A DNA stretch of 64,000 bases from a virus (IMGVR_UViG_3300029171_000004), one strand, 5' to 3'. Shown: positions 1,097-18,259, numbered from the stretch's first letter. Translations and numbers: made by a program. Notes: generated by a model from the sequence alone, not told the origin.

Positions 1097-1179
1097 ACTT
1101 ATAAATATATGTTGATTTTTAAATTTTGGGCACTTTGTTTTATAAAACCCTACGAGCCAAGCTATGATTGATAAAAAAA

Positions 1180-1530
1180 TTATTCACTCCACTCAATCTC
1201 AGGATCAACGTAATATCCAGGGTTTTCATAACCATCAATAGCCTTGATTAGTTGGAGTTTGCCGTCTAAAGAACCATAAGTTTCTTTGCGCATTTTTTTT
1301 CTATTGTCTTGATTAAAACCATAACTCACAATTTGGCTTGGTACCATTTCATAAACAATCTCTATAAGCATCCCCTCAGATGTTTCTATTATCTTTGTGT
1401 CTCTGAGTTTTTTGCTGTATGTTGGCATATAAGAATATGTACCAGTTGTCGTTATTCCAGCAAGACCGCCGCTAGCGACACTTATGGATGTTCCAGTTAA
1501 ATTTGTTGAAGTTATGTAACTCATAAGCAT
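1180..1530 (-). CDS. hypothetical phage protein
   Basis: 116 aa ORF, TATTTATA motif at 1562-1569 upstream. Confidence 0.65.
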   Translation of the reverse strand: MLMSYITSTNLTGTSISVASGGLAGITTTGTYSYMPTYSKKLRDTKIIETSEGMLIEIVYEMVPSQIVSYGFNQDNRKKMRKETYGSLDGKLQLIKAIDGYENPGYYVDPEIEWSE

Positions 1531-1657
1531 TTTTTGTAAACATAAAAATAACTAACAAAATTATAAATAGAAATGTTTAAAAAATGTCTCCATTGCTGCA
1601 ATTTGGACCATTATTTGCTAAATTATAAAACTAATTATATATACAAAGTAGTTTAAA

Positions 1658-1921
1658 ATGACAGATATAGAAGAAAAAGTAAAATTTATTGTAGCCTGGT
1701 ACAACAAAGAAAAAACGAAGTTCACATTTACAAAACAAGTGGCTCTTGCCAATATTTGGATAGAGATTTGTACCAAAAATGAAGAATATGAAATGGCATC
1801 TGCAATAAACAAAGAAAAGATAAAAGTAATTGCTGGCTTTTTAAATGAAAAAAGGAAGAGTAGAACTTTATTGCAAAAAATAAAATATTATATCCTTAAA
1901 CTAAAAAGAAGATTTAAATAA
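1658..1921 (+). CDS. hypothetical protein (Lys-rich)
   Basis: 87 aa ORF, A-rich start context, followed by hairpin element and terminator. Confidence 0.65.
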   Translation: MTDIEEKVKFIVAWYNKEKTKFTFTKQVALANIWIEICTKNEEYEMASAINKEKIKVIAGFLNEKRKSRTLLQKIKYYILKLKRRFK

Positions 1922-1962
1922 AAAGGCCTCAAATGACCTTAATTACGCAAGTCTTAATTAAG
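1922..1962 (+). repeat. left copy of island-flanking inverted repeat / hairpin element
   Basis: aaaggcctca-aatga-ccttaattacgcaagtct-taattaag; 10/10 and 18/18 blocks match the reverse complement of 17144-17185. Confidence 0.85.
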
Positions 1963-1981
1963 CGAATTCTTGGGCTGAAAT

Positions 1982-2012
1982 AAAAAAGGGAGCTGATTCA
2001 GCTCCCTTTTTT
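1982..2012. terminator. bidirectional intrinsic terminator
   Basis: AAAAAAGGGAGCTGA-T-TCAGCTCCCTTTTTT perfect inverted repeat with A/T tails. Confidence 0.85.
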
Positions 2013-2051
2013 ATTTCATTGATTATCAGCAAATTTGGGTTAAAAATTGAA

Positions 2052-2873
2052 ATGGAAGATATTCAAACAAAATTGGTGAATTTCGATGACTTAGACCTGC
2101 CTGCTACAGTTTACAAGTACAGAAATTGGGACGACAAATGGCATAAGACCATTATCACCGATAGGCAGGTTTATATGTCCGCACCAATGGATTTTGAGGA
2201 TAAATTAGATTGCAAAAATCACATTAGATATGATCTTTTGACTGATGATGAAATCCGATGGAAATACTATATGGAATCTAAGATGGATTCGAGTCGTGCT
2301 CATCTTCCAGAAACGGAACATCAAAAATTTGCAGAAGAGTGGTTTCAAATTAGTCCACTCCACGATCAAGAAAAAATAAAAGAACTACAAGAACAGGATT
2401 TCATTGCTTTTAATGAGAGAACTGGGATTTTGTGTTTAACAGCAAATCCAATTAGACCTGAAATGTGGGCTAAATATAGTCAAGAACACACGGGCTTTTG
2501 TGTGGGCTTCAATCCGAATATCATGTTCAAGTATTTAGGTGGTGGACAAGAAGTAATATACTGTGATCCGCTCCCAACAATAAAACCAAGGCCATGGGAC
2601 AGCTTTGAGAGTCAAATGATTAAGCAAATTTATCACAAAGAAAATAAATGGGCATTTGAAGAGGAATACAGGACTCAAACATTTAATATTAACCCATTAA
2701 AGAAAGAGCAAAGGGTAGTAACTTTACCAATTGAAGCCTATAAGGAAATTATTTTTGGTGCTAGGATCTCTAACTCTGCACGAATGGAAATAATGGGCTT
2801 CGCAAAACAACTTCTTCCTCACGTGCAATATAAACAAGCAGAGATAGTCAACGATAAGATAATTCTTAAGTAA
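2052..2873 (+). CDS. DUF2971-family protein
   Basis: YKYR, MWAKYSQEHTGFCVGF and KENKWAFEEEYR motifs; ATG 2052 preferred over upstream TTG. Confidence 0.75.
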   Translation: MEDIQTKLVNFDDLDLPATVYKYRNWDDKWHKTIITDRQVYMSAPMDFEDKLDCKNHIRYDLLTDDEIRWKYYMESKMDSSRAHLPETEHQKFAEEWFQISPLHDQEKIKELQEQDFIAFNERTGILCLTANPIRPEMWAKYSQEHTGFCVGFNPNIMFKYLGGGQEVIYCDPLPTIKPRPWDSFESQMIKQIYHKENKWAFEEEYRTQTFNINPLKKEQRVVTLPIEAYKEIIFGARISNSARMEIMGFAKQLLPHVQYKQAEIVNDKIILK

Positions 2874-2965
2874 ATTGAGAATAGACTTTAACGTTTTTGT
2901 AGATCTCATTTTGAAGTTGAGAGGCATCAATAATTTGGAAATTCGATCCAATTTCGCTACATTTT

Positions 2966-4192
2966 ATGAAAAAAATAAATATGCGATCATTTAGTGAAAT
3001 ATCAAGTTTCGACTTTCCGAAACTCCATTACCAAAAAATTCAGGACGAAATAAATTCAAACAGTAAAGACTATATTCTTAAAGTTGATGAGGAAGAATTC
3101 GTGAAATACTTGGTAAACAAGTATTCGCTTGAACCTCTGAACATAATACACGAAAGCGAAAGTGTTAGTGAGCCAAAAAAGTCCAAGGTCAAAAGACAAA
3201 ATATGTGGAGAGAAGAGTACCTTGCGGATTCCTTTACATTCACAGTTAGTTATCAATTTACTGGCTCACCTGAAATATTCAAAATACGTTCAAGTAACTG
3301 GGTTATGACCTCGAATGAAATCTTCGTTAATAGTTCAAATTCAACTGTTAGTTTTCAGTTTACCATTTATGCTCAGGATGTAGAAGAATTTAATAAGGCC
3401 AAATCAGAAGGCTATTCAAGTGCATTTACTAATCTTACCAATGCAAATAACGATGTTCAACAAGTTATAAATGGTTTTGAAGGTACGGTTAGAGCAATGT
3501 TTCAAAGAACTAAGGATTCATTTAGTAAAGAAAATGCTTTCTACACTGCAGTAAATATTAAAACCAATCCGAAAACTGCATCTGTTTTCAGTGCCCCAAC
3601 AATTAAAAAAAAGGATGTGTTTCAACCAAAAGTATCGGAAAAAAAAGAGTTCGCAGCTGAACCAACAATGTCCCAATCAATGTATGAGGAGATCTTAAGA
3701 GCAGTCTACGACTGTGGTAAAAACATGGAGAAAAAACCGTCCTTGTATATAGGTAAAGATGAGGAGGGCCTACGTGATCAATTTGTTTTCGTGCTTGAAA
3801 CAAAATACGAAGGAACAACAGCTACAGGTGAGACATTTAATCGAAATGGCAAAACAGATATAATTCTTAAGTTTGCCAAGGATGGTTCAAATCTATTTGT
3901 TGCTGAATGCAAATTGTGGCATGGTCCAAGCGAAATGCTCAAAGCCATTGACCAACTTTTAAGCTATTTAACTTGGAGGGATTCAAAAGTTGCCTTAATG
4001 CTTTTTGTACATAATCAAAACTTTACAAGTGTCTTAGATACAATTAAAGCGGACATAACAAAACATGCTCAGTATAAAAAATCTGTCGGAAATAGAGGTG
4101 AAAGTTCCTTTTCATTTATTTTTGGATTGCCACAAGACACAAATAAAGATGTTCAATTAGAAATTATGGCTTTTCACTATGATAAAAGATGA
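2966..4192 (+). CDS. protein with C-terminal PD-(D/E)xK restriction-endonuclease-like domain
   Basis: EEGLRD...GKTDIIL...LFVAECKLW...IDQLLSYL pattern (E..D..ExK). Confidence 0.65.
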   Translation: MKKINMRSFSEISSFDFPKLHYQKIQDEINSNSKDYILKVDEEEFVKYLVNKYSLEPLNIIHESESVSEPKKSKVKRQNMWREEYLADSFTFTVSYQFTGSPEIFKIRSSNWVMTSNEIFVNSSNSTVSFQFTIYAQDVEEFNKAKSEGYSSAFTNLTNANNDVQQVINGFEGTVRAMFQRTKDSFSKENAFYTAVNIKTNPKTASVFSAPTIKKKDVFQPKVSEKKEFAAEPTMSQSMYEEILRAVYDCGKNMEKKPSLYIGKDEEGLRDQFVFVLETKYEGTTATGETFNRNGKTDIILKFAKDGSNLFVAECKLWHGPSEMLKAIDQLLSYLTWRDSKVALMLFVHNQNFTSVLDTIKADITKHAQYKKSVGNRGESSFSFIFGLPQDTNKDVQLEIMAFHYDKR

Positions 4193-4196
4193 TAGT

Positions 4197-4415
4197 TTAG
4201 AGAGCCATGATAAGCTTCTCAACCTCCACCTCTAATCCTTTCGCCACCTCAACAAGATAATAAAAGCTCGGATTCACCCCTCCAGCTTCAAGTCGCTGAA
4301 TTGACTGTTGATCTTTCCCAATAGAATTGGCCAGTTCGACTTGGGTAATACCTTTCTCCTTGCGGATTTCTTGGATTCGTTTGCCCAGTTTCTTTAAAAG
4401 TATTTCCTTTTTCAT
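4197..4415 (-). CDS. XRE/Cro-C1 HTH transcriptional regulator
   Basis: LGKRIQEIRKEKGITQVELA...IQRLEAGGVNPS; ATG 4415 preferred. Confidence 0.9.
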   Translation of the reverse strand: MKKEILLKKLGKRIQEIRKEKGITQVELANSIGKDQQSIQRLEAGGVNPSFYYLVEVAKGLEVEVEKLIMAL

Positions 4416-4537
4416 TGGTATCATAAAAGAACTGGAAACAACCGAAAAGTTGTACAACGGATTTGTTGTATTTTGGAATAATCATTATTTTCGTGTTTAA
4501 AATGAAAATTATGGGAACACTTATTAAAATAAACAAG

Positions 4538-4915
4538 ATGCACTACATCGTTGTCCTGGTCAGCTTTTTAATGAGTTGTACATCGGATAAAAGCTACTTA
4601 AGCGAGGGATTTTGGTCGTATGAATACGAAACTGAACCGCTAATCTCCAAGTATGGAAATTTCGAATTTGAAACAAATGGGACTTGTCATTACTATACAA
4701 CCAATCATCAAGTTGATGGTCGTTGGGAACTGGGGGAATACGATAAAGTTTCCGATATACAAATAGTCAAAATATCTATGGACTCAGATATTAATATGGG
4801 AACTGGAAAATCTTTTGAAATGAAATTAAATCGTGAAAACAAGGCCTGTCTTTATTTTTCAAGTGGCACTGGACGTTATTATCATTTCAACGACAATAGT
4901 AAACCAATAAAATAG
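4538..4915 (+). CDS. putative lipoprotein
   Basis: MHYIVVLVSFLMSC lipobox-like signal; start reassigned to ATG 4538. Confidence 0.6.
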   Translation: MHYIVVLVSFLMSCTSDKSYLSEGFWSYEYETEPLISKYGNFEFETNGTCHYYTTNHQVDGRWELGEYDKVSDIQIVKISMDSDINMGTGKSFEMKLNRENKACLYFSSGTGRYYHFNDNSKPIK

Positions 4916-4921
4916 CAGATT

Positions 4922-5677
4922 ATGAAAGCAGTGTTATTAATATTTGCAATTGCATTCAGCTCAATATGTAAAGGTCAAAACTTCAAAACAATTGAGGCAA
5001 CATATATTAAATCTGGTGAATGGGGCGAATGGTCAGGTCTTATTTTCAAAAATGATAAGGGGGAAGAAATGCGGTTCTTAAAAACGACAAATCAGGATGT
5101 GGGAATAAGACGTTTCTGGCAGGACAGAGAAGTAACAGCCGATCCAGAGGATGTATCTGGCCAAATACATACAAACAAGAATTGTGTTGGTCAAAAATAT
5201 CTTATAAGATATGTTACGAAGACCGTTCATTACAAGGGTATGGATGAAGATGGCTCACAAGATGTGCTTGAAAATGTGATTTTAACCTTTCAACCACTTG
5301 GAGGAGACAATATAAATGGGGCTTCGAGCTATATATATCAGAATGGCGAATTGAAAGCGATAACCTTTGATACAAAAGTTTATGAGATAGACGACAGAGG
5401 CAAAAAATACAATGAGAAAATTATACAGAACAAGAACGAAATTTGTCGTGGTAAAACATGTTACAGGATTGTTTTGGAGAAAGACGGTGTCTTTTATACG
5501 CTTGTATTACCAAACATTACCGATAAGAACATTAAGGGTAAAGCCGAAAAATATGAAATTCTGAAATGGGAAACTGATTATCAGGGCCAGGGGCAATATA
5601 AAAGTCGTGGCATTACATATTTTGGAGATAGATATTTATCCGTTTTAGCAACCCTTGCATTTTCTTGGTTTCAATAG
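4922..5677 (+). CDS. secreted protein of unknown function
   Basis: MKAVLLIFAIAFSSICKGQ signal peptide ending in Q, typical of Bacteroidetes. Confidence 0.65.
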   Translation: MKAVLLIFAIAFSSICKGQNFKTIEATYIKSGEWGEWSGLIFKNDKGEEMRFLKTTNQDVGIRRFWQDREVTADPEDVSGQIHTNKNCVGQKYLIRYVTKTVHYKGMDEDGSQDVLENVILTFQPLGGDNINGASSYIYQNGELKAITFDTKVYEIDDRGKKYNEKIIQNKNEICRGKTCYRIVLEKDGVFYTLVLPNITDKNIKGKAEKYEILKWETDYQGQGQYKSRGITYFGDRYLSVLATLAFSWFQ

Positions 5678-5704
5678 CTAATCAATGATTAACTGAGGAT
5701 TAAA

Positions 5705-7120
5705 TTACGAATTACTGTGTAAAATAAGGACTGGGTTTGATTTGTCAACTGGAATATTAAAAGACACAAAGATTTCATTAATTAACCAACGTCTCCCTAG
5801 CCAATTACCTCCTTTGACCTGAAATGAGTCACTTTCATCATATTTTCCTCTTCCATCAATATCATTACCGAAGCTGTTATATAGGTGATTTACGAGCTTT
5901 TCAACTTCGCTGTAGTAAACAAAGTTCGAGTAGTTTTTTGGCGTTCTCCTGAAAACATATGAATATCCTGAGTCTATAAAACGATATATAACAAGTTGAT
6001 TAAAAAAAGTAAATAGATTGCTAGATATGATCCATTCGTGTATTTCCCCCTGATTTTCTAATGAACAATATATACTTGTGCTTTCTACCTTACTTTCGTC
6101 AAAAACGATAGACTCTTCAAGTTCATTAAGTGCGGACTTAAAAGATAATCCTTCTAAATATACAAGCATCTCGGATACAGAATAAACCTTTGTGGGTATA
6201 TTCTCTATTTCATAAGCTACTTTTGCTTTCCCCGCAGTTTTTCTATCCTCTGTCACAAAAAAATCACAGTGCGCACCATAGAAAGCATGTTTTAGGTCAT
6301 TGAGATAGTTATTATATCCATTGTCCATACTATCGGACTTGTAGCCAATCATATCCAAATTGGAAAATGCCAATAAGAATTTATCCCAATTGGATTGTTC
6401 TTCAGGTTTTTTTGGTTGACTTGCAATAATTAAGTCATTAAACTCTAAAAAGGTTTTATTTAAAGCGCTATCCTGCATGACAGCGTCAAGCTTTTGGATA
6501 ACATCCTGATCAAATGAAGAAATATGGCTTCCAATATTAAGGTTCGAGATTACAAATTTTCTTAGCTCTTTATACGTGGACGGGTCTTTTTGCATTTCCG
6601 TAACAAAATTCAACATACTTATTATTGCTTCGCCGAATGTATCACCAGAGTACATTTTTGCCATTGGAGTGTTCTCAAGCCCTGGAACTTTTAGAGGATT
6701 TTGGACATTAAGTGCGTCAATCATCATCTTTCCCGCTAAGCCAAGTTCACCTGGTTCATTCTGAAGTTCTTTGAACACAGCCATAACATCTGTGGGTTCT
6801 TCCTTGATAGTGAAATTCTGAAAATAGACTCGTGGATCAGCAATGCCAGCCACAGCATTAGGATTTTTTAGTTCGGTTGTAATCAGATTGTGCTCTGAAA
6901 GTTCAGCGATGAACTCTAAGTCAGCCTCAGTCATTTCTCGTTTCTTTAAATCATCGGCATCATACCTATGAGCTAAGTCAGACATCAACGCATCTGAAAA
7001 GGGAATAATAAAATGTTCTTTATGTTGTCTCAACTTCTGCAGCATTGCAATATCCTCAGGTCTAGAGCCTTTTTTGAGAGCGGTAATTACATTTTTATCC
7101 AAGTAAATTCTAATCATCAA
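5705..7120 (-). CDS. PIN-like domain protein
   Basis: N-terminal IYLDKNVI and later NDLKHAFYGAHCDFFVTEDRK acidic motifs typical of PIN folds. Confidence 0.6.
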   Translation of the reverse strand: MMIRIYLDKNVITALKKGSRPEDIAMLQKLRQHKEHFIIPFSDALMSDLAHRYDADDLKKREMTEADLEFIAELSEHNLITTELKNPNAVAGIADPRVYFQNFTIKEEPTDVMAVFKELQNEPGELGLAGKMMIDALNVQNPLKVPGLENTPMAKMYSGDTFGEAIISMLNFVTEMQKDPSTYKELRKFVISNLNIGSHISSFDQDVIQKLDAVMQDSALNKTFLEFNDLIIASQPKKPEEQSNWDKFLLAFSNLDMIGYKSDSMDNGYNNYLNDLKHAFYGAHCDFFVTEDRKTAGKAKVAYEIENIPTKVYSVSEMLVYLEGLSFKSALNELEESIVFDESKVESTSIYCSLENQGEIHEWIISSNLFTFFNQLVIYRFIDSGYSYVFRRTPKNYSNFVYYSEVEKLVNHLYNSFGNDIDGRGKYDESDSFQVKGGNWLGRRWLINEIFVSFNIPVDKSNPVLILHSNS

Positions 7121-8550
7121 ATTTTAACAAATAACTCTTCATTAATCTCACATCTCAACTGATCCTCATAGTATTTTACATAATTAATAATACGACCATT
7201 ATAGCCAAGATGCTTTAAAAGAAGTTTGTTCACAAGCACATTTAATCGAAGAGAGATATGGTAAACCTTTAGCTCATCAATTTTATTACCTTCTTCATCA
7301 TTACCATTTCGACCATGTAGAAAATTATTTCTATTGTCAATGGCTACAAGGTCAAGGTCGTTTAGTTCAATTCCATACATTGCAAAGGGCTTTATTAGTT
7401 TATCTCTGTTTGTTGGATTGTTGATTTTGTCTATGTTTTTTTGAAGAATTACCATTGCGTCATTGTCGCCAGTAGCATTAATAGCATCTTTATAACCTTC
7501 TAGAACAGCCACCAGATCCGTCCTAAATTTTTTAGCAAGAGCCTTATCCTTGATTGGTTTTAAACCGTCATTTTCATCAGCAATAATGTTAGTCAGTCTT
7601 TCCAACGCAACAGAATATCCCGCTGGCTGAAGAATTAATGATGCTGTATTTGCTTCAAGTAGTAAAATAATTAATGAGGCGTAATTTTTGTCAGAATAAA
7701 TCCTATTGCAAAGTTTGGAAAACAGTTCTTGTGAAAGAGGCTTCATATCATCTTTCACTCTATCAGCCAAGGATTCGTCATCTGTCCGACCATAAGGTTC
7801 TCCATAAATTGGATTATTGAGTCCTTTAAGAGTATTCCTTAATTGGAGGTACTGGATGTCTCTCATAGAACTGAAGGAAGCTTCTTCTGATGATAGGTAA
7901 AATGCTTCATTTTGATAGAATGTTGCGCAGAGCAACCCGTACCCAATCATAATGGAATGACAAATATCACTAAACTCTTCATAAGGTATTTTAACTGTAG
8001 AATCTATAAAGAAATGCCTTTCGTCATCTTGGCTTACCTCATAGATATTGAAGTCTAAGCCCATTACAGTTACTGGAGCTTTACCATAAAAGTGGTGCAT
8101 TTTTTCGTCTTTGAATTCTTCGGTCTCTACGTAAAACTGAAGTCTGTTCGATTTTCCCACACATATAACAAAGCGACGGAACATGTGTTCCAAATTCTTG
8201 TGGACTTCTGAACACAGTAACCAAATATCACCACTTACAATCATCCCGCCTTTCAATGGTTCGGTTAAGTTTTTTCGGCTAGCCCTGAATTCTCTGCTGG
8301 TCATTGTGTAATTATTGCAATAGTATGTTTGATCACCGACCTCAAGCTTCATTTCAAATGGCACATAAAAACCCTGGAATAGATCCTTAACAATCAACTC
8401 AAAACCACGCTCGCATTTACGAAGCACCCCATCATGTTTTTCGATATTATATTTATCAATAGTGACAAGAACATTCTTTACCTCTCTTAGCCAACTAATT
8501 TTTTCAAAAGTCGACTGAACAATGATATTTTCTCCTTTATCCATATGCAA
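7117..8550 (-). CDS. HEPN-domain protein (ApeA-like)
   Basis: C-terminal RNNFLHG (RxxxxH) motif in helical domain after YSVALERL; long beta-rich N-terminus. Confidence 0.65.
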   Translation of the reverse strand: MHMDKGENIIVQSTFEKISWLREVKNVLVTIDKYNIEKHDGVLRKCERGFELIVKDLFQGFYVPFEMKLEVGDQTYYCNNYTMTSREFRASRKNLTEPLKGGMIVSGDIWLLCSEVHKNLEHMFRRFVICVGKSNRLQFYVETEEFKDEKMHHFYGKAPVTVMGLDFNIYEVSQDDERHFFIDSTVKIPYEEFSDICHSIMIGYGLLCATFYQNEAFYLSSEEASFSSMRDIQYLQLRNTLKGLNNPIYGEPYGRTDDESLADRVKDDMKPLSQELFSKLCNRIYSDKNYASLIILLLEANTASLILQPAGYSVALERLTNIIADENDGLKPIKDKALAKKFRTDLVAVLEGYKDAINATGDNDAMVILQKNIDKINNPTNRDKLIKPFAMYGIELNDLDLVAIDNRNNFLHGRNGNDEEGNKIDELKVYHISLRLNVLVNKLLLKHLGYNGRIINYVKYYEDQLRCEINEELFVKI

Positions 8551-8734
8551 GCAATATATATTTATTCTAGAAAAATGTAAATACTAAATTTAAAAAATAT
8601 AATTAAAAGGAATTTTCAACTAAGTTCCACTTATGCACTAACGACCAACAAATTAATGAGGGGTTGCTACAAAATATAGCTATCATTTGCTTTCAATTTT
8701 TGTATATTCGTTTTCTCTCACCCTAGATTAATTT

Positions 8735-9031
8735 ATGGAGAAAACTTACAATTTTGGTATTGACATTGTGTATTCTAAATGCAAAGCCGTTCTTGCTAAA
8801 CTTGAAATGAAAATCGAGTCAGTGAATAGAACAACAGGCACAATAAGAGCTTCCACCCCAACATCTCTTTTATCATGGGGTGAAGAAATCACTATTAAAT
8901 TAAAAAAAGTAAGTGAAACAAAAACAAAAGTTTATGTTACCTCTGAAGCAACATCGCAACTAATAAGCTGGGGGAAAAACGAAAATAATGTGTTATCTAT
9001 AATTGAAGAACTTTCAAAACGCCTTAAATGA
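8735..9031 (+). CDS. small hypothetical protein (alpha/beta, DUF1499-like fold possible)
   Basis: 98 aa ORF, TATATTCG element upstream, coupled to next gene by ATGA. Confidence 0.55.
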   Translation: MEKTYNFGIDIVYSKCKAVLAKLEMKIESVNRTTGTIRASTPTSLLSWGEEITIKLKKVSETKTKVYVTSEATSQLISWGKNENNVLSIIEELSKRLK

Positions 9032-9351
9032 AATTATATGTAAATAGTAAGGCAACTGGTAATAAAACTTACCTAAATGTGTACGCCCCAACAAGGAATA
9101 TTCTTAAGCAGAAGCTTGGGAACGAATGGCTAACGATTTATGATGGGTATGTTTATCATGTTTCTGAAGTTTTTGCCGAGGCTGAAATGGAAATACCGAA
9201 AACTGCTTCGGGGGCTGTTATTGGGGGGTTACTCGGATTGTTAGGTGGGCCACTTGGTTTATTATTGGGAGCTGGTTTAGGTGGTGTGATTGGTAATAGT
9301 TCTGACACAGATGAAGTACGAAAAACTAACCATTTTAATAATAGTAAATAA
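9028..9351 (+). CDS. glycine-zipper membrane protein
   Basis: GAVIGGLLGLLGGPLGLLLGAGLGGVIG repeat. Confidence 0.7.
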   Translation: MKLYVNSKATGNKTYLNVYAPTRNILKQKLGNEWLTIYDGYVYHVSEVFAEAEMEIPKTASGAVIGGLLGLLGGPLGLLLGAGLGGVIGNSSDTDEVRKTNHFNNSK

Positions 9352-9917
9352 TGGGAAGTCAAGTCGTTTCTTCAAAAAAATTATCTAGGAAGCGTTTTAT
9401 TCCACTTTTTTGCATGCTAGCTATTGGCGTTATAGGTGTTTGTTGGAAGGACTCAACCATATACTCAATTAAATGTGCCATACAGTTGCTTCAACATCCT
9501 TTTAGACAAGGAATTATTTATTCCATAGGGTTAGTTATTGGTATTTCACACTTTTATTATGTGGGGCTGGATAAGGGTCATCATTTGGGTTTTATGGGTT
9601 TCTCTACTGGGGTATTTAGTTCAATTGCTAACGCCGTTGGATTTTCTTTTATGATGAACAAAGGATTAAGTTTTTCAATCGGAGTGATTGGTGACTCACT
9701 AAAGATAAAACCTTACTTTGTTGATGGAACAGATATAGATTATATCACCCTTTCTCTTGTTTCATTCCTTGTTGTATTTCTATCAGGTTATATGCTATGG
9801 AAGTTAGCAGAAGAATTTCTTTATGAAATTAAGCACCCATCTAGTGATGTAGAGGGGGTTCAGAATCCAAAGGACCAGAAATCTGCTGAAATTCCTGGAG
9901 AACAAGAGTCAAAATAA
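9351..9917 (+). CDS. multi-pass membrane protein
   Basis: Four hydrophobic stretches; TAATG coupling to previous gene. Confidence 0.6.
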   Translation: MGSQVVSSKKLSRKRFIPLFCMLAIGVIGVCWKDSTIYSIKCAIQLLQHPFRQGIIYSIGLVIGISHFYYVGLDKGHHLGFMGFSTGVFSSIANAVGFSFMMNKGLSFSIGVIGDSLKIKPYFVDGTDIDYITLSLVSFLVVFLSGYMLWKLAEEFLYEIKHPSSDVEGVQNPKDQKSAEIPGEQESK

Positions 9918-9924
9918 TATAACA

Positions 9925-11139
9925 ATGTTTATGAATGATTACCCAAGACTTCTTGAAGAATTTTGTAGGGAAGGGAATCTTCATAATTACAGATTTTCTC
10001 TCGTTAAAATTTTTGCAGCTATTGATCTTAATCCTTGTAAGATATCATGTCAGTACATTTCCCCTGCTTCCAGCATCACCTTTCTCCCAGAGGGCCCAAT
10101 TATTCGTGTTGCAATTAAAGGCCGCAAAAATCCATTACATATCATTTGGGATTTGTTGCATGAGTATGGGCATTTTGTGATTGGTCCCAATGAAACCAAT
10201 GACAAAAACAAGATGGCTGTTAACGAATACCATGCTTGGAAATTCGTGTCAAAGATGATGGCTCGGCTTCCTGAATTGGACCGTTATAAAATAGAATACG
10301 AGCAATATAAACAAGAATGCTTGTCAACTTATATTGAAAAACTCCAGTTAAATTACGATGTCGAAGCCATATTAAAAAAATATATGCCAAGTATCATTGA
10401 ACTGTTAGGAGGTCAAAGCATTTCATGGACTTCTATCAATAAGGGACTTACACAGCATATTTCTGAAATCCGTAAAGAGTTTTATGCCACTGGGAAATTA
10501 ATTTTAAAGGAGACAAGTTTTTATTCGATGATTGCTGAAAGGTTTACAGGAACTGGAAAATCAAATGCGATGTTTGACTACTACGATACATTGTTTAAGA
10601 AACTTAATACCAAACTAACATCAGAAGAAAAGCAGCCAGTTAGGCGAATTATATTGCAACTTCTCACTAATCTTAATAATAATCACATGAATTTCATTGG
10701 TGAACTGTCCGTGCTCGATAAATACATTTCCACTGGGCAATATTACTTTGTCAACATAGAAGCAAGAATCTCTTCTGATAGTAATGTTACGGCAGATATT
10801 TATTTAAAGCGTAAATTAGATGGTAGTGATTTTCTGGTTGAAGTACTCAATTTGCATTTGGAAAAAACGCAAATCAATGACTATTCAAAATTTAAATATC
10901 ACTTGGACTCAAAATTTACCCAAAAAATCAAGAGTAAGGGTATTTCCGATAAACGTGAAGTGAAAATACAGCCTGTGCTTTGGTATACGGACCACAATCA
11001 ATTTAAATGGGTTCAGGACTTTTTTTTAAAAACAGATTATGTGCATCCAGATGTACTTGACCCAATGTGCTATTGTAGTTACTTTAAGCATGATGGCTCT
11101 TATCAGCATTGGTTTGATCGTATCAAATTTATTAAATAA
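9925..11139 (+). CDS. HExxH (IrrE/ImmA-like) metallopeptidase fused to possible nuclease-like domain
   Basis: DLLHEYGH plus downstream NEYHAW; C-terminal ADIYL...FLVEV. Confidence 0.5.
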   Translation: MFMNDYPRLLEEFCREGNLHNYRFSLVKIFAAIDLNPCKISCQYISPASSITFLPEGPIIRVAIKGRKNPLHIIWDLLHEYGHFVIGPNETNDKNKMAVNEYHAWKFVSKMMARLPELDRYKIEYEQYKQECLSTYIEKLQLNYDVEAILKKYMPSIIELLGGQSISWTSINKGLTQHISEIRKEFYATGKLILKETSFYSMIAERFTGTGKSNAMFDYYDTLFKKLNTKLTSEEKQPVRRIILQLLTNLNNNHMNFIGELSVLDKYISTGQYYFVNIEARISSDSNVTADIYLKRKLDGSDFLVEVLNLHLEKTQINDYSKFKYHLDSKFTQKIKSKGISDKREVKIQPVLWYTDHNQFKWVQDFFLKTDYVHPDVLDPMCYCSYFKHDGSYQHWFDRIKFIK

Positions 11140-11153
11140 CAAAAAAATAATTT

Positions 11154-11636
11154 ATGTCACTGAAACCATTTCATTATCACTGTAGGGAAACAGTAAGTTT
11201 TGAGTACTTTAATGAAAATCGACCATGCTCTCCTGAAATAGTTGCAGAAGCTTTGCGTAAAATATATGAGGACTACTCAGATTATTATGTTTATCTGGGA
11301 ATCACGGAAAATCCGTGTGGAAGGTTCTCTGGTAATTACATGGTCAATGCTTTGCCGTTTGATATTAGACTTGAAGTACCAATAAGTCTTTATGATGCCA
11401 TTATGCTCGATGAAAGGTCTCATAGCGAAGATTACGAAAAAATGTTTGTAATCTGCTATGCAGAAAATGAAAAAGATATTCGGGATATGGAAGCTAAAGC
11501 AATCAAGTCGGGAGAGGGTATTGACTCTGACAGAACACTAAATTTAACTCTTGGTAGAAATGGTAATGTAAAACCAGGTCGGAATTTTTACTTCTTGTAT
11601 GCATGTATTACTTTAACTATTCCTCTTGAAGATTAG
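11154..11636 (+). CDS. GIY-YIG-like protein
   Basis: YYVYLGITENPCGRF and later conserved E (DMEAKAI). Confidence 0.45.
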   Translation: MSLKPFHYHCRETVSFEYFNENRPCSPEIVAEALRKIYEDYSDYYVYLGITENPCGRFSGNYMVNALPFDIRLEVPISLYDAIMLDERSHSEDYEKMFVICYAENEKDIRDMEAKAIKSGEGIDSDRTLNLTLGRNGNVKPGRNFYFLYACITLTIPLED

Positions 11637-11902
11637 GCGTAAGAGCGAAAAAGCTGCCAAGAATATTTATACATTCTTAGATTAACTTTTGGATAAGACT
11701 TTTTAATGTGTTCAAAATACTCTTTTGCTTTTTTAAGCGTGCTAAAATCATAATTTATTCTCAAAAATGATCGACTCTCTTCATCTATTACTTGTCCATA
11801 GACCCTATAAACATTAGTAATCGCAGGCTTCCTATAACACTTGTCTTCACCATTGAAAGTAAAATGGGCGTTTTCCTTATGATAGAATATTTCCTCTTCC
11901 AT
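11633..11902 (-). CDS. hypothetical phage-type protein
   Basis: 89 aa ORF with TATTTATTA motif upstream (11941-11949). Confidence 0.55.
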   Translation of the reverse strand: MEEEIFYHKENAHFTFNGEDKCYRKPAITNVYRVYGQVIDEESRSFLRINYDFSTLKKAKEYFEHIKKSYPKVNLRMYKYSWQLFRSYA

Positions 11903-12198
11903 GTTGCTCTTTTTAATAATAATAACCTTAGTCTGGGGGATAATAAATAGTTATGTTGATTATCTAAAAATTTTTATATACTGATAATCACAATGTTACG
12001 AGTGAAATTTGAGTATAAATGAAACCTTTACAACGAATATGTTGTATAAGAGTCTGTAAATGGGTTAATACCCTGTTTTACATCCCCCAAACAACCAAAC
12101 TCGCCCTGGCACTTGGCGTGAGTTCAAACGATAACAATTTTATTAACAAAAAGTTCGTCTTAAATGATGAACCGTGTTTAAAACAAAAATTATATGTC

Positions 12199-13161
12199 AT
12201 GAAAACAAATGTCAAATTAAAATGTTGGAGTTGTGGGGCCGAAATCGGCAAACAACTTGTTACTCAGTTCGAAAAATCAATAAGAGCAGATCTTGAACAA
12301 GAACTAACCAAAAAACAATCAGAACTCAACAAACAAAAAGGTGAATACAAAAAATTAACCTTGCAACTGGCTAAAGAAAAAGAACAGTTCGAACAGCGAA
12401 CAAATCTTAAAGTTAAAGAGCGGGAAAAGGTCATCGAGGATCTTAAGAAGAAACTTGACGAAGCCCGTAAACGAGCAGATACAGCCTTTACAAGCCAGCA
12501 GCTTGCTGGTGAAATACAGGAACTTACTCTTGAAAATACGTTAAGAGAACTGTACCCAGAAGATGAAATCATTCCTGTTCCTAAAGGGAAAATGGGTGCC
12601 GATTGTATTCAGGTTATCAATGTAAACGGTAAACCAATAGGTAAAGTAATTTACGAAAGCAAAAGGACAGCTTCGTTTTCATCCACCTGGATATCAAAAC
12701 TGAAAGAAGATAACTTAACGGCCAAGGCAGACATCTCCGTAATCGTCACAACAGCTTTTCCAAAGGGAATAAAAGGTCCATTTGCGATTATTGACAATAC
12801 ATGGATATGTGCTCCAGAAGCCATCAAAGATCTTTCGCTGGTATTGAGGTATGGGCTGCTTAAATTGCAAGCGCTGGCCATAACCCAGAAAAGCAAAGAC
12901 ACGAATATGGAACTCCTTTACAGGTTTCTAACCAGTGAGGAATTCAAAAATATCTTTACATCAATTCTCAGCAGTCTCCAGGGATTGCAAGAGAGTCATA
13001 GTTCCGAGAAAGTACGGATTCAGCGCATGTGGGCTGAACGAGAAAAAATTCTTGAATTACTTTTATCACAAGCGGTCTCCTTTTATGGTAACATAAGAGC
13101 AATTGCAGGAGTAGCAATACCTGAGATCCAAACTTTGGAAGCCCTCCCAAAGGCTAGTTAA
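12199..13161 (+). CDS. DUF2130-family coiled-coil protein
   Basis: CxxC, coiled coil, SQQLAGEIQELTLE, GKMGADCIQ, IYESKRTASFS motifs; ATG 12199 preferred. Confidence 0.8.
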   Translation: MKTNVKLKCWSCGAEIGKQLVTQFEKSIRADLEQELTKKQSELNKQKGEYKKLTLQLAKEKEQFEQRTNLKVKEREKVIEDLKKKLDEARKRADTAFTSQQLAGEIQELTLENTLRELYPEDEIIPVPKGKMGADCIQVINVNGKPIGKVIYESKRTASFSSTWISKLKEDNLTAKADISVIVTTAFPKGIKGPFAIIDNTWICAPEAIKDLSLVLRYGLLKLQALAITQKSKDTNMELLYRFLTSEEFKNIFTSILSSLQGLQESHSSEKVRIQRMWAEREKILELLLSQAVSFYGNIRAIAGVAIPEIQTLEALPKAS

Positions 13162-13361
13162 TACATTTCATTCTGCAGTACCAAGACGAGGAATCTAATT
13201 GATTCATGGGATTCTCATGTCTTATAGGTCAAAGTAACTTCTGAAATGAGGGGTTTGTTACTCTCATGAGATGTGGTCTGTAAGATGAAGTATTCTTAGA
13301 AGCGATGAATTGCGGGGGCAATGATTCGCTTCCTTGTCGAAGTATTCTTATCTGAATTATT

Positions 13362-13598
13362 ATGAAAGAGAAAAAACTAAAACGAGAAGATTTTGATGCG
13401 TATCTGATGAAATATTATTTCCAATTACTCTTGACACCAGGACTATATGAAAAGACTGGCGAAAAAAACGGAAGAAAATTAAGAAAGGAAATAAACTTCA
13501 GCTTCACAAACACACCAAACAGAAATAATAAAATTGTTTCGAATGATGTATGGAAAACACTCGTGTACCATCACATGAAGCGATACATATACAATTAA
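13362..13598 (+). CDS. hypothetical protein
   Basis: 78 aa ORF, A/T-rich start context. Confidence 0.5.
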   Translation: MKEKKLKREDFDAYLMKYYFQLLLTPGLYEKTGEKNGRKLRKEINFSFTNTPNRNNKIVSNDVWKTLVYHHMKRYIYN

Positions 13599-13620
13599 TA
13601 ACAAACGAAAATAATAAATC

Positions 13621-14076
13621 ATGGAAACTAAAATTTATAATCAACGACTAGTAAAGTATGCCAAACATTTGGCGAAACAAAAAACTCATCCAGAAATGGG
13701 TGAGTACAGTTATGCAATTCTCTGTGACCTCTCTGGTGAAAAGGAAGTTCAATTCGGTGTGTGTTTTCACGCATGGATATTTAATGACCTTCCTTTGCTA
13801 TTTCCAGAACAATGGTATTTCAATGATCATTTGAAAGAGCCATTCTTGATGGGATTGGACGTAGAAGAAGGTTCAATAGCAGGGATTTTTGATTTTTTCG
13901 GATTGAACCCTCAGGAATTTGCTCACTTATTTGATCTTGATGGATCACAGCAACCTCATTTATTTGGGGGAAGCTTTTTAATCGAAGACTCAACTGGAGA
14001 AGATATATCGAAAAACATCTTTCAATTCATTCAGTATAAGGCAGCACTTACACATATTAACCCAAAATCGAACTAA
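13621..14076 (+). CDS. hypothetical protein
   Basis: 151 aa ORF, aaaataataaatcATG context. Confidence 0.65.
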   Translation: METKIYNQRLVKYAKHLAKQKTHPEMGEYSYAILCDLSGEKEVQFGVCFHAWIFNDLPLLFPEQWYFNDHLKEPFLMGLDVEEGSIAGIFDFFGLNPQEFAHLFDLDGSQQPHLFGGSFLIEDSTGEDISKNIFQFIQYKAALTHINPKSN

Positions 14077-14232
14077 GATTTATTGGCGTGAGGAGTGACC
14101 CCTTAGAACTTAAAGTTAGAATTTAACAAATCGGTTAAAATATTCTTTTTCTCTGAATCTCCCTATATACAAGGGGTTTCGGGTATAGTGATAAGTAAAT
14201 ATTCTTTTTTGAAAAGCATCCCACTTAAATAA

Positions 14233-15672
14233 ATGGGAAACAAAGTGAAGGCAACAAGGTCAAATACAAAGATTTCTCCGCACGGAGGAGTGGTTCCGAT
14301 TCTTAAGAAAATTAAGGAATGCGGAATACCTCAGCTTATCCGAAAGTGTCTGGGTAAGCGTGTGGAGCAATCTAAGTATGGCTATGATGACGTATTTATT
14401 GCTTGGGTATTGACCTCACTGTGTGGTGGAACCAGACTCGACCACATATCAAAATTAAAAAAGAAATTATCTATTATTCCTGAATTAAAACTGCCAAGCC
14501 ATGATACTCTAGGAAGAGTTATGAAAAAACTTGCCACTGAAACAACTTCAAAAAGGACACTAAGTAACAGATCAAGTGTGTATAATCAGATAAATGAAAA
14601 CATTCATCTCAACAGAATGTTGGTTAAATCAACCAAGAGCTCCAAAATTCTAAATGAACAAAGATCTTATACCATGCACATTGACGCAACATTCATTTCC
14701 ACTGAATGTCGGGGTGCGGTTAGAAAGAAAAACAAAGATGGTAAAGTCGAAGTTGCTCGCATTGGATTTAATCCGATGATTTGTTTAATCAATGAACTTC
14801 CAATATTCATAAGTATGAGGGATGGATATGCGAATTCCCACTTTGAATTAAACTCCTGTTTGCGAAACAGTTTGATGTTATTAACTGAATCAAAGATAAG
14901 GGTTGGCAGAGTCATTAGTGATGCGGCTGGCTATAACAAAGAAGCTTTCGAGTACCTTCATGGTAAAGACATAAAGTTTCTTGTGAGATTTCCATTTAAT
15001 TCTAGAATGGAAACATTTAAAGCATCTCTTATCAATTGTTCTAACTGGAGGTCAGCTGAAATAAGAACAGCCAATTTTAATTGGCTTTGTGAAGTTGGAG
15101 ACATTCCATATAAAATGCATGACCACTATTCTCTAAATTATACGTCACCGACTTGGCGAGTTGTTGCAATGAGAATACCTATAAATGAATTAAATGAAGA
15201 TACCAAGTTGGTGGCGATAAATAACAAAGAAAGGCTTAAAGTGTTAGCCAATAGAGGAAAATTGAAAGAAGTAGCAAAACCTTATACAGAAGGGAAGTGG
15301 ATTAGTTCAGGTAACTATATGTATAAATTTATTATCACCAATGATTATGATAAACCTGCTGAAGAACTTATCAATGAATTTAATAAACGAGGTTATGCTG
15401 AACGTGTTATTTCGTTTATGAAACAAGATTTTGCGTGGAGACTACCACCATTTATGAACATGAATGAAAACACAGTTTTTATGATTGCTGCAGCTTTAGC
15501 AAATAATATTTTCAGAGGAATGGTTAAGCTCTTTAATCAGTTCATACCACAATTAAAGCTAAGTGCAAGATTGAGAGAATTTCAATTTGTTTTCATTGAC
15601 GTGGCTTGTGCTTATGTGGATAGAACCTATATATTTTATAATACTGATATTGAATATGAACTTTTAATATGA
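14233..15672 (+). mobile_element. IS1380-family DDE transposase
   Basis: ISPHGG, HIDATF, ISDAAGY, RGYAERVISFMKQDF motifs; DDE triad appears intact; no terminal inverted repeats recognised. Confidence 0.8.
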
Positions 15673-15679
15673 AAACATC

Positions 15680-15958
15680 ATGAATGAAAAGGAACTTGTG
15701 ACTGCTTTAATAGCAGATCACTTCAGACATATGAAACTTTTGTCTGGACTCGAAAAGTTGGGGTTCGATACCCTGGACTATTATATTGATATACCTGAAA
15801 CGATTGTTAAGGTAATGGGAATAGCAGATTCTGAAACGCCGCTGTTTCATTACATAAATGCTGTTGAGTTAAAATGTGGGAAGTCGGAAAAGTATCATGA
15901 AGTCGCTGCAGAACTTTATGAAGATCTTGTTTGGATGAGGGAGGAATTAAAAAAATGA
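15680..15958 (+). CDS. hypothetical protein
   Basis: 92 aa ORF 7 nt after the transposase stop. Confidence 0.6.
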   Translation: MNEKELVTALIADHFRHMKLLSGLEKLGFDTLDYYIDIPETIVKVMGIADSETPLFHYINAVELKCGKSEKYHEVAAELYEDLVWMREELKK

Positions 15959-15968
15959 AGAATTAATT

Positions 15969-16241
15969 TTGTTATCTTTGATTATGGACTACAAACATAC
16001 CATTGTTAATGGACATCATGTTATCATTGTTGATTATGTTGGCTTCTCCACAATTGCGGTTAGTGCTGTCTTTAAAGGAGTCTTAACCGAGAAATTTCCA
16101 GACGCAAATGACGAATTTATAATCGGTTATATGGATGATAATGAGACTTATACATTTGAGTCACCTCAGCGTATTATTATTACTCAAGAAGATTTAGATG
16201 CGGTTCCAGACGAAGATTGGGAAATGCTTCGTTGGGGTTAG
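15969..16241 (+). CDS. hypothetical protein
   Basis: Acidic ORF, likely start at internal ATG (MDYKH). Confidence 0.5.
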   Translation: MLSLIMDYKHTIVNGHHVIIVDYVGFSTIAVSAVFKGVLTEKFPDANDEFIIGYMDDNETYTFESPQRIIITQEDLDAVPDEDWEMLRWG

Positions 16242-16245
16242 GGGG

Positions 16246-16554
16246 TTACCCTCTGTCAATTGCTTTTTTACTTGCTCTTATCCTCTCTGAATCCGTTTCT
16301 AAACTATGAATGGTTGAATTAAAACTCGCTTCAGCCAAAGCATAAAGACCCTGAATATAATACTCTCGATTCATGTCGCTTCTTATAATCCAAGATAAAC
16401 CAGTTTCAGGATTATTCTTGATTGTGAAGGTATGAACTCCATTCACTATCATATTGATTTCAGTTGTAGCAGTTATTTTTGATAACATCATTGGTCGTTT
16501 TATTATAAAATACAATAACCATTGCAAAAAATCAATGGTTATTAAATAAAACAA
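16246..16554 (-). CDS. hypothetical protein
   Basis: ORF track; true start probably an internal Met. Confidence 0.4.
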   Translation of the reverse strand: MFYLITIDFLQWLLYFIIKRPMMLSKITATTEINMIVNGVHTFTIKNNPETGLSWIIRSDMNREYYIQGLYALAEASFNSTIHSLETDSERIRASKKAIDRG

Positions 16555-16560
16555 AATGAA

Positions 16561-17037
16561 TTAAGCAGCAGTTTCGTAAAAAAGCTCAAAATCAAATTCT
16601 GGAATATCTGAATAATTGATTTTATTCTTGCTTTTAACCTCAGGTTGGAAATTAACCTGATTATTATCCGCCAACAAAACAAGTCCGTTATCTTTCGGGG
16701 TTTGAATGATAACATGTATCGTGCTCATTGGGTCAAATGAAATGATTGTTCTATTTTTAATGTATTTTTCGTTAAACTGCTTCATAGATAACTTATCTAT
16801 GACTTGATATCCAATCTTATTATTGTATTTATAAACGCAGATTAAGAGTGATTTATCTAATTCTTTTCTAAGAAGTATTTGGTTAAATCGCATAAAACGA
16901 CTTCCTGTATATTCAGGTAACAGATCATGCATGGTATTCATACCATTCACATCCTTTCTAAATATTAGCCGTCCTTTCATAATATTAAAGATACGCAACA
17001 GAAGTATTAAATCATACTGAATCAACAAATTTTGCAA
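16561..17037 (-). CDS. hypothetical protein
   Basis: 158 aa ORF; likely start at MKGRL. Confidence 0.55.
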   Translation of the reverse strand: MQNLLIQYDLILLLRIFNIMKGRLIFRKDVNGMNTMHDLLPEYTGSRFMRFNQILLRKELDKSLLICVYKYNNKIGYQVIDKLSMKQFNEKYIKNRTIISFDPMSTIHVIIQTPKDNGLVLLADNNQVNFQPEVKSKNKINYSDIPEFDFELFYETAA

Positions 17038-17094
17038 ATAAATTGCGCTAAGATGAAGCGATTTGTTATTTAAATAGCTAAAAACCAGTAAATT

Positions 17095-17126
17095 AAAAAG
17101 GGAATCCGTAACTGGATTCCCTTTTT
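17095..17126. terminator. bidirectional intrinsic terminator
   Basis: AAAAAGGGAATCC-gtaact-GGATTCCCTTTTT. Confidence 0.85.
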
Positions 17127-17143
17127 GTTTTCTTTTGCCCTTT

Positions 17144-17185
17144 CCTTAACTTGAGACTTGCGTAATTAAGGCAAATGAGGCCTTT
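17144..17185 (-). repeat. right copy of island-flanking inverted repeat / hairpin element
   Basis: Minus strand reads aaaggcctca-tttg-ccttaattacgcaagtct-caagttaagg. Confidence 0.85.
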
Positions 17186-17191
17186 CTAATT

Positions 17192-17404
17192 TTAAAACAC
17201 GATGATAAACACCCAGCATATGATTGCTACAATAAGCCAACCGTCAGCTCGATATGTTCGTGTTTTTCCACGTAAATTATCTAATAGCTCCTGGGTTGAC
17301 CCTGGATATGTTATGTTCAAATATGTTGCAACAGCAAAAATCAGTGTAGATATGCAACCAAATATCCAAGCCAACACATTTAAAAAAGTCATAAATTTTT
17401 CCAT
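17192..17404 (-). CDS. small two-TM membrane protein
   Basis: MEKFMTFLNVLAWIFG...WLIVAIICWVFIIVF; start reassigned to ATG 17404 directly after nadE stop. Confidence 0.65.
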   Translation of the reverse strand: MEKFMTFLNVLAWIFGCISTLIFAVATYLNITYPGSTQELLDNLRGKTRTYRADGWLIVAIICWVFIIVF

Positions 17405-17406
17405 GA

Positions 17407-18258
17407 TTAACTGTTTTTTGGCAACTGACAAATAGGCGGCATTTCCATTTTGTGAGCATTTGCAGTATGACGTTTCCAATAAATTTTTACAACTTGTGCT
17501 TGGCGTTCAGATAGCATTTCTGGAAAAGACATATTTTCAATTTCAGGTGGTGAATGTTCATCGCAAAAATTCATAGCCCATTCAAGCTCATCATATGTTG
17601 CGCCTATTTGATCTTCATCGGTTCTACCATCATCCCAAAGACCATCTGTTGGACGTGCGTCTAAAATATCTTGGATAATTCCAAGTTCTTTTCCAAGCGC
17701 ATATACTTCTGATTTAAGAAGCTCTCCAATTGGGGAAAGGTCGATTCCACCATCACCGTATTTTGTAAAGAAGCCAACCCCGTAATCCTCCACTTTGTTT
17801 CCAGTACCACAAACAAGAAGCTTGTGAGCACCAGCAATACCATAAAGAGTTACCATTCTAAGACGAGATCTTGTGTTGGCAGATGTAAGAAAAATATCAT
17901 CTGCGCTTATGTTTTCAAAAGCGCCAGCTTTTGTGAGGAGTTCAATTTCTTTATCATAAGCCTCGGTTAAATCAATATCCAAAGATTTTACATTTGGAAA
18001 GTTTGCTTTTAACCACTCAATATGTTTTGAGCCACGATCTGCTTGGTCTGCAGCTTGATGAATTGACATTTTAACAACAAACAATGGCATTCCAGACATT
18101 GCGCATAAAGTTGAACAAACTGCTGAGTCGATTCCGCCAGAAACACCGATAATATATCCTTTTGTTTTTGCTTTAAAGCAATAAGATTGTAGCCAATCTG
18201 CAATGTGATTTTTAATAACACTATAGTTGCGAGATTTGTTTTGCGTTGTTGTTTCCAT
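17407..18258 (-). CDS. nadE: NH3-dependent NAD+ synthetase
   Basis: IGVSGGIDSAV, NTRSRLRM, GTGNKVE, FFTKYGDGG, PTDGLW, DEDQIG motifs; no glutaminase domain. Confidence 0.95.
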   Translation of the reverse strand: METTTQNKSRNYSVIKNHIADWLQSYCFKAKTKGYIIGVSGGIDSAVCSTLCAMSGMPLFVVKMSIHQAADQADRGSKHIEWLKANFPNVKSLDIDLTEAYDKEIELLTKAGAFENISADDIFLTSANTRSRLRMVTLYGIAGAHKLLVCGTGNKVEDYGVGFFTKYGDGGIDLSPIGELLKSEVYALGKELGIIQDILDARPTDGLWDDGRTDEDQIGATYDELEWAMNFCDEHSPPEIENMSFPEMLSERQAQVVKIYWKRHTANAHKMEMPPICQLPKNS

Positions 18259-18259
18259 A

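Follow-up and report, generated by a model that had tools for sequence, protein, structure and literature searches.

Genes and repeats at the borders of the island

The window analyzed here is a 64,000-nt stretch of viral DNA (IMGVR_UViG_3300029171_000004), and the subject of this work is an inserted element of 15,235 bp (positions 1937-17171) whose two borders carry inverted copies of one short sequence. By its gene content, the window is apparently part of a large phage genome. It encodes NAD salvage genes (NadE, a cytidylyltransferase-like protein, a Nudix protein and NAPRTase), a thymidylate synthase and a cREC-CCA enzyme, together with an SNF2 helicase, a PD-(D/E)XK nuclease, an amidase endolysin and SbcC-like, primase and MazG proteins. 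A tRNA search of the window found none. The interval between the two repeat copies holds host-like genes, with ~20 open reading frames (ORFs) in the element. The phage gene on the left flank encodes 87 amino acids (aa) (1658..1921, +), and its stop codon (TAA, 1919-1921) overlaps the A-tract of a split terminator. On the right flank, a 70-aa two-transmembrane phage protein is encoded on the minus strand (17192..17404, stop 17192-17194), downstream of nadE (17407-18294). For NadE, the gene caller gives 283 aa and the longest ORF, which starts from a TTG, gives 295 aa.

A preliminary description of this DNA had reported two inverted copies of a ~41-bp element, each following the stop codon of a gene and preceding a terminator, at the two borders of an accessory island. 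We found both copies at the reported places. The window contains exactly two copies of the 18-mer CCTTAATTACGCAAGTCT, in inverted orientation, at 1937-1954 (+) and 17154-17171 (-), and these are identical at 18 of 18 positions. The chance expectation for this 18-mer is ~0.08 matches even when 3 mismatches are allowed, and two matches were obtained in none of 100 shuffled sequences. At the left repeat, imperfect similarity runs on to ~1966 and includes the AATTAAG partner of a palindrome. More generally, the subterminal ~100 bp are built alike at the two ends, with a palindrome, an A-rich tract, a terminator and an TTTAATTTAYTG motif, and other copies of the element described below show this likeness between their ends too.

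Immediately outside each repeat we observed the same seven letters, CAAATGA, as a direct repeat (1930..1936 and 17172..17178, both +), and AAAGGCCTCA is also common to both borders, just outside each repeat copy. The left junction reads ...AAAGGCCT-CAAATGA / CCTTAATT... and the right junction reads ...AATTAAGG / CAAATGA-GGCCTTT.... The outermost segments are the two arms of a single bidirectional terminator, the left one being an A-tract followed by GGCCT (1920..1929, +) and the right one being GGCCTTTCTA (17179..17188, +); in relatives of the phage these arms form one intact hairpin. The sequence shared by the two borders is real, but the ~41-bp unit is a composite of a split terminator arm, a target duplication and a transposon end. 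The inserted element starts at CCTTAATT and extends inward, and AAAGGCCTCA and CAAATGA are flanking phage DNA. The AAAGGCCTCA arms resemble an inverted repeat because the arms of one terminator are reverse complements of each other.

Empty alleles in relatives and in independent metagenomes

We analyzed the corresponding locus in other phages. The IMG/VR contig IMGVR_UViG_3300033119_002206 (L002) was reached from NadE, which is 76% identical there, and also from the gene at 1180-1530. In this contig, the homologue of the two-transmembrane gene again comes after nadE and is convergent with a homologue of the 87-aa gene (11125-11388, -). The two genes are 27 bp apart and the spacer is a bidirectional terminator, AAAAAGGCCTCAAATAGAGGCCTTTTT (11100-11126), with no island. 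A second relative (L001, NadE 78% identical) shows nadE, then AAAAAGGCCCTAATTTAGGGCCTTTTTT, then a convergent 89-aa homologue of the left-flank gene (1634-1903, -), and it also has no island. CCTTAATTACGCAAGTCT was not found in these two relatives, even at 3 mismatches. When 1937-17171 and one CAAATGA are removed from the window, the terminator is restored as a hairpin with a 9-bp stem and a 4-nt loop (-15.2 kcal/mol).

In a look-up of sequencing runs, many freshwater and aquatic runs were found to hold ~45% of the words of positions 1600-2300, corresponding to the phage half only. The alleles were compared by aligning the assembled contigs of four runs to positions 1000-18500 of the window. 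Contigs from three runs belonging to three studies (X3, X7 and X8) carry the empty form with flanks at least 99% identical to the window. They join position 1929 to position 17172, so that 15,242 bp are absent, and 7 letters at the join fit both sides. The length skipped therefore equals the 15,235-bp element plus one 7-bp duplication. In X3, for example, the contig is 25.7 kb long and shows 1 and 5 mismatches over 930 and 1,329 nt of the flanks. By contrast, the filled form is found in X1 and X2, two runs that probably belong to the source study, and an empty-site contig was seen in neither. The right junction is also present in the independent Logan assembly of SRR4039779. Among the runs searched, a near-identical island turned up only in the study of X1 and X2. 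The proposal that the copies mark both borders of a mobile accessory island is thus borne out, since both the relatives and the near-identical phages are empty at this locus with breakpoints at the repeats.

Three further observations concern the element in other sequence collections. The Logan contigs of X1 break inside the island at 7568-7642, where one contig starts with 30 nt on the opposite strand; a local inverted repeat has probably misled the assembly here, rather than there being a biological junction. In the activated-sludge run X23, contigs ~92-95% identical to 12044-14342 only (the DUF2130 gene, a 151-aa gene and the start of the transposase gene) were found in another context and, as read from these contigs, represent a close relative of the element core with different cargo. 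Finally, a megablast of both junction regions against the INPHARED phages gave no match, and the exact 18-mer CCTTAATTACGCAAGTCT was absent from IMG/VR.

The island encodes an IS1380-related transposase linked to the repeats

The preliminary description had stated that the window encodes no recombinase. This does not hold, as we identified an intact, full-length gene for an IS1380-related DDE transposase of 479 aa at 14233..15672 (+), with its 3' end toward the right end of the element. The protein matches Pfam DDE_Tnp_1_4 (PF13701) with 59.4 bits for a cut-off of 34.7, and its best NCBIfam family is IS1380 (NF033539, E 1.4e-40, 139.2 bits). The Y(2)R(3)E(6)K motif and residues D151, D230 and E390 are all preserved in this protein and do not vary across 14 homologues; from the IS4-type motif, we take these three acidic residues to be the catalytic triad.

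Homologues of the transposase, 37-68% identical, are encoded in at least 13 non-redundant loci that carry the 18-mer. The 3' end of the transposase gene is followed by an inward-facing repeat at a distance of 0.2-2 kb in 14 of 15 loci (1.5 kb in the window). This proximity places the transposase at a fixed end of the element, with the cargo upstream. An inverted-repeat search of the window showed no nested insertion sequence (IS) repeat pair around 14233-15672. In IMG/VR (2.9 million contigs), queries with the single protein and with an alignment of 14 sequences returned no relative of the transposase clade, and a search of INPHARED with the transposase gave one distant match only (23% identity). 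The clade apparently forms a deep, unnamed branch near IS1380.

A family of elements in Bacteroidota inserted mainly in terminator loops

The exact 18-mer was found at 34 loci in species-representative genomes and at 59 metagenome loci. The carriers are nearly all Bacteroidota, among them Fluviicola, Vicingus and Wandonia haliotis as well as many unnamed metagenome-assembled genomes of Bacteroidia. In Wandonia haliotis JCM 16083, a copy of 12.5 kb lies on contig 03 at 764140-776662. About eight loci (L104, L122, L129, L134, L136, L144, L151 and L169) were set aside as unrelated matches and show no transposon features. These loci have a GC-rich, apparently protein-coding conserved sequence, ...GCCGCTCAAA/CCTTAATTACGCAAGTCT/TCTCGCTC..., and one of them (L104) is labelled Thaumarchaeota.

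Ends could be paired, within loci or across loci of one contig, in fourteen cases. The fourteen pairs bound elements of 0.8-24.7 kb, the smallest with a full transposase being 3.3 kb (L121). Target duplications were observed in 11 of the 14 and are 7 bp long, two of them appearing as 8 bp. When the element and one duplication were deleted, a perfect hairpin made of an A-tract, a GC stem, a 4-nt loop and a T-tract was rebuilt in nine of the eleven, with the duplication centred on the loop. The same ends were found at many different target sequences in other genomes. We observed a terminator 5' arm next to 43 of 76 non-redundant ends, compared to 3.6% of 20,000 positions drawn at random from these loci; this test is crude and misses some obvious cases, the right end in the window among them.

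The ends share a common layout, namely the 18-bp repeat, (C)AATTAAGG, a G-rich patch, an A-rich tract, a terminator and TTTTTAATTTAYTGATTATCA. A subfamily (L089, L095, L103, L109, L113 and L142) is without the 3' half of the palindrome. The 18-mer search fixed the 5' half of the palindrome in this set. RNAalifold on 30 ends gave no useful consensus, as MAFFT cannot register the variable stems, and a per-sequence detection of perfect stems was used instead. With this approach, a perfect-stem, T-tailed hairpin was detected inside 42 of the 76 non-redundant ends, its stem starting at a median of 45 nt from the tip. The stems of these inward terminators vary between copies (GGAGTCC, GGGTCAG, GGGAACC, GGAGGTC, GGCGCTG and others), and the retention of the hairpin with differing stem sequences points to selection for structure.

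After the inward terminators (2007-2030 and 17075-17096 in the window, columns 82-103 of alignment A2), most ends share TTTTTAATTTA(T/C)TGATTATCA, a motif that could serve as an inward, Bacteroidota-type promoter or else provide the transposase with a second binding site. Short derivatives with the same repeat were also present, at L099 2356-3146 (791 bp), L159 2824-4280 (1,457 bp) and L088 4835-6769 (1,935 bp). A search for transposase homologues found none in L099 or L088, and in L159 only the C-terminal part (residues 346-479). From their length and content, these derivatives are likely miniature inverted-repeat transposable element (MITE)-like or deletion forms of the family. One 6.7-kb copy (L111 7891 / L087 6612; CAJCJB010000074.1, 23891-30612), inserted in a terminator with an 8-bp duplication, lies on a contig labelled Candidatus Saccharibacteria. 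As the other carriers are all Bacteroidota, either the contig is mis-binned or the copy has been transferred between phyla.

Proposed origin of the two copies

We consider it very probable that a 15,235-bp DDE transposon has inserted in the loop of a terminator in the phage genome and that the two copies are its junctions with this genome. The IS1380-related transposase would be the responsible enzyme and would recognize the 18-bp repeats. The enzyme would cut the bidirectional terminator between the convergent 87-aa and 70-aa genes across its apical loop, with a stagger of 7 bp, and join the element ends there, the target presumably being recognized as a palindrome or as an extruded hairpin. 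Gap repair would then duplicate CAAATGA. The split terminator arms AAAGGCCTC and GAGGCCTTT now lie outside the two element ends. The element's own inward terminators, ~45 nt inside each end, would replace the destroyed terminator for the flanking genes and would also shield the element from read-through.

Terminators at the element ends and the possibility of a structured RNA

Terminators follow both copies, as reported in the preliminary description, and they are strong. At the left end, the inward intrinsic terminator (1976..2018, +) is a 21-nt perfect inverted repeat (1976-1996/1998-2018; -32.5 kcal/mol, z -5.3). At the right end, the inward terminator (17090..17131, -) has its arms at 17090-17107/17114-17131 (-30.4 kcal/mol, z -4.0). 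Both stand ~60 nt past the stop codon of the flanking gene, and their position suggests that the left-end terminator would now end the transcript of the 87-aa gene and the right-end one that of the two-transmembrane gene.

This arrangement, with both copies right after stop codons and ahead of terminators, would also be expected of a structured 3' untranslated RNA, acting in stability or processing, that happens to flank the island. In a context of 97-104 nt, both copies fold with an inner CCUUAAUU/AAUUAAG stem and an outer stem, and the variation of the 3' half within the family often keeps G-U pairs, in agreement with such an RNA. However, the 47-48-nt border segments folded alone show no extra stability compared to shuffled sequences (z -0.30 and +0.17), and the minimum-energy fold of the left copy differs from the GNRA-capped hairpin that had been proposed, which leaves this hairpin weak. 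The Rfam scan of the whole window gave no match at the gathering score, and at both sites the sub-threshold matches obtained at E up to 10 aligned only to the terminators, so that Rfam matches nothing beyond a generic terminator. Moreover, the AAAGGCCTCA part, half of the shared sequence, is accounted for by the arms of the pre-existing terminator, and elsewhere the motif is always at an insertion border, whatever the upstream gene. A conserved 3' RNA is therefore very unlikely as the explanation of the two copies; the transposon end may have an additional RNA role beside its DNA role.

Pairing, possibly due to chance, is also available at both copies between the terminator arm GGCCU on the flank and a G-rich stretch inside the element, GGGCU or AGGC, which would enclose the CCUUAAUU/AAUUAAG stem (1925-1929 with 1971-1975; 17181-17178 with 17139-17136 on the minus strand). 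An (A/G)GGT patch recurs at the equivalent position in other copies of the family.

Recombination sites and transposition units

The preliminary description had also suggested a site for site-specific recombination or cassette capture. According to this hypothesis, the copies would be att- or attC-like sites of a tyrosine or serine recombinase encoded elsewhere, and the island would move or invert conservatively. Short inverted arms with a spacer at both island borders and the existence of empty alleles are in line with it. Yet the 7-bp direct target duplication is not a product of conservative recombination, a DDE transposase is encoded within the element and accompanies the repeat from genome to genome, and the same ends sit at many unrelated target sequences. 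In addition, no integrase, tyrosine or serine recombinase family match was obtained among the island proteins scanned. We thus judge this hypothesis extremely improbable.

An ISEcp1/ISPme1-style transposition unit, in which an IS1380-type IS mobilizes adjacent host DNA via a surrogate end, would fit a known behaviour of IS1380-family members (PMC9330008), the relationship of the transposase and an element far larger than an IS, but it is hardly credible here given that the ends are identical at 18 of 18 positions with ~100 bp of shared subterminal architecture and that the cargo lies upstream of the transposase gene and not past its 3' end.

Cargo genes of the element

The cargo begins near the left end with two PADLOC candidate defence genes, PDC-S31 (2019..2873, +; PADLOC E 2.2e-95), which is also matched by Pfam DUF2971, and PDC-S54 (2966..4192, +; PADLOC E 2e-106). 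They are followed on the minus strand by an Xre-type HTH_3 regulator (4197..4457, -; PF01381, E 7.7e-13) and by two overlapping ORFs of 471 aa and 477 aa (5705..8550, -). The upstream gene of this pair has a weak ApeA-like HEPN match (PF18739, E 0.0021), below the curated cut-off. A DUF2130 gene (12019..13161, +; Pfam E 1.3e-46) has homologues with 42-52% identity in L152, L084, L167, L087, L109 and L154, which often accompany the transposase. Just upstream of the transposase gene, a 151-aa gene (13621..14076, +) is conserved in several copies, with tblastn matches in L121, L084 and L083, and gave no lead in Pfam or Atlas. The other cargo genes are without family assignment.

Discussion

The element described here is of an ordinary kind, a DDE transposon with inverted repeats and a target duplication. 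Its clade, apparently without a name so far, has terminator loops as its target, and in this phage the element is polymorphic for presence and absence. Repeats of the IS1380 family begin with CC. The element resembles members of this family (IS1247, ISEcp1 and ISPme1, and the Bacteroides ISBf12, IS942 and IS612B) in its DDE_Tnp_1_4 transposase and in repeats starting with CC. By contrast, simple IS of the family are ~1.6-2 kb long with a single ORF, while the copy in the window has 15,235 bp and ~20 ORFs. The element also differs from the family in its cargo, held between two authentic ends and upstream of the transposase, and in the insertion in a terminator loop combined with built-in end terminators. 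Family members are known to carry passenger DNA (PMC9330008), and in the papers searched neither cargo between authentic ends nor end terminators are reported for this family. An ISEcp1/ISPme1 unit has its cargo beyond the 3' end and a weak surrogate repeat, and the element in the window has neither. We found no description of IS1380-type elements targeting terminators in the literature searched, which is weak evidence, ISfinder and TnCentral being outside the search.

Several points weigh against the proposed insertion of an IS1380-related transposon in a terminator loop. The transposase does not reach the NCBIfam trusted cut-off for IS1380 (139.2 bits for a cut-off of 180), and its nearest annotated relatives, the IS1380-like ISBf12, IS942 and IS612B, are only ~23% identical. 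The duplication is 7 bp long, compared to 4-5 bp in the IS1380 family. For IS1247, the target duplication is listed as 5 bp (PMC3281130, Table 2). No donor copy of the exact element was found outside the phage. The evidence from sequencing runs consists of assembled contigs and not of raw reads, and it gives the presence or absence of each allele without allele frequencies. Finally, the survival of harmless intergenic insertions probably adds to the enrichment in terminators. Such a survival bias does not explain the spacing between the A-tract and the repeat, which is constant at 11-14 nt.

The closest behavioural precedent that we verified is IS1272, a member of the IS1182 family in staphylococci, for which a transposition targeting inverted repeats has been described (Wan et al., 2017; PMC5678879). 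After insertion, the IS lies between the two arms of its target, which may be taken for terminal repeats of IS1272 itself, and one new copy landed on a prophage (PMC5678879). The target is not duplicated, and the IS is proposed to take the place of the inverted repeat (PMC5678879). The element in the window is comparable in its inverted-repeat or hairpin target and in the confusion caused by the flanking arms. It differs in having true 18-bp repeats, a 7-bp duplication and a transposase of another family, with no IS1182 match.

Other elements prefer palindromes or terminators, such as IS1397 and ISKpn1 (loops of the REP/BIME repeats), IS231A (GGG(N)5CCC), the group IIC introns, which insert after terminators, and Tn7 (the glmS terminator). 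All of them use intergenic hairpins or terminators as safe-haven targets, with enzymes and chemistry that differ from those of the element in the window. To our knowledge, none of them brings replacement terminators in both ends, and none combines an IS1380-type transposase with a cargo of 10-20 kb.

Going beyond this single insertion, we tentatively put forward a broader hypothesis, which is possible although we would not yet favour it. The family could be a clade of Bacteroidota cargo transposons (0.8-25 kb) that is IS1380-related, branches deeply and has not been described so far. Its members would integrate specifically across the apical loops of terminators with a 7-bp stagger and carry a replacement terminator inside each end, so that an insertion would exchange one terminator for two at almost no cost. 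Terminators of this type are also used by phages, and the targeting could thereby bring cargo of the defence type from host transposons into the genomes of virulent phages. The copy analyzed here would be a recent one, polymorphic at the population level in a large phage.

With these results, a border motif that had no explanation resolves into a mobile element whose ends are precisely located, and a 15-kb defence-style island is dated to a single recent transposition rather than to ancestral phage content. The results also carry a warning for annotation, since split palindromic targets can pass for part of the repeat of an element. If the transposase is indeed directed by structure, it would be useful for biochemistry and possibly for targeted insertion tools. 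The natural occurrence of one phage with and without the element in independent metagenomes is direct evidence of a bacterial cargo transposon entering a phage genome, a rare documented case of such a jump for a clade otherwise unseen in phages. Overall, the preference for terminator loops and the terminators built into the ends suggest a general low-cost insertion strategy.

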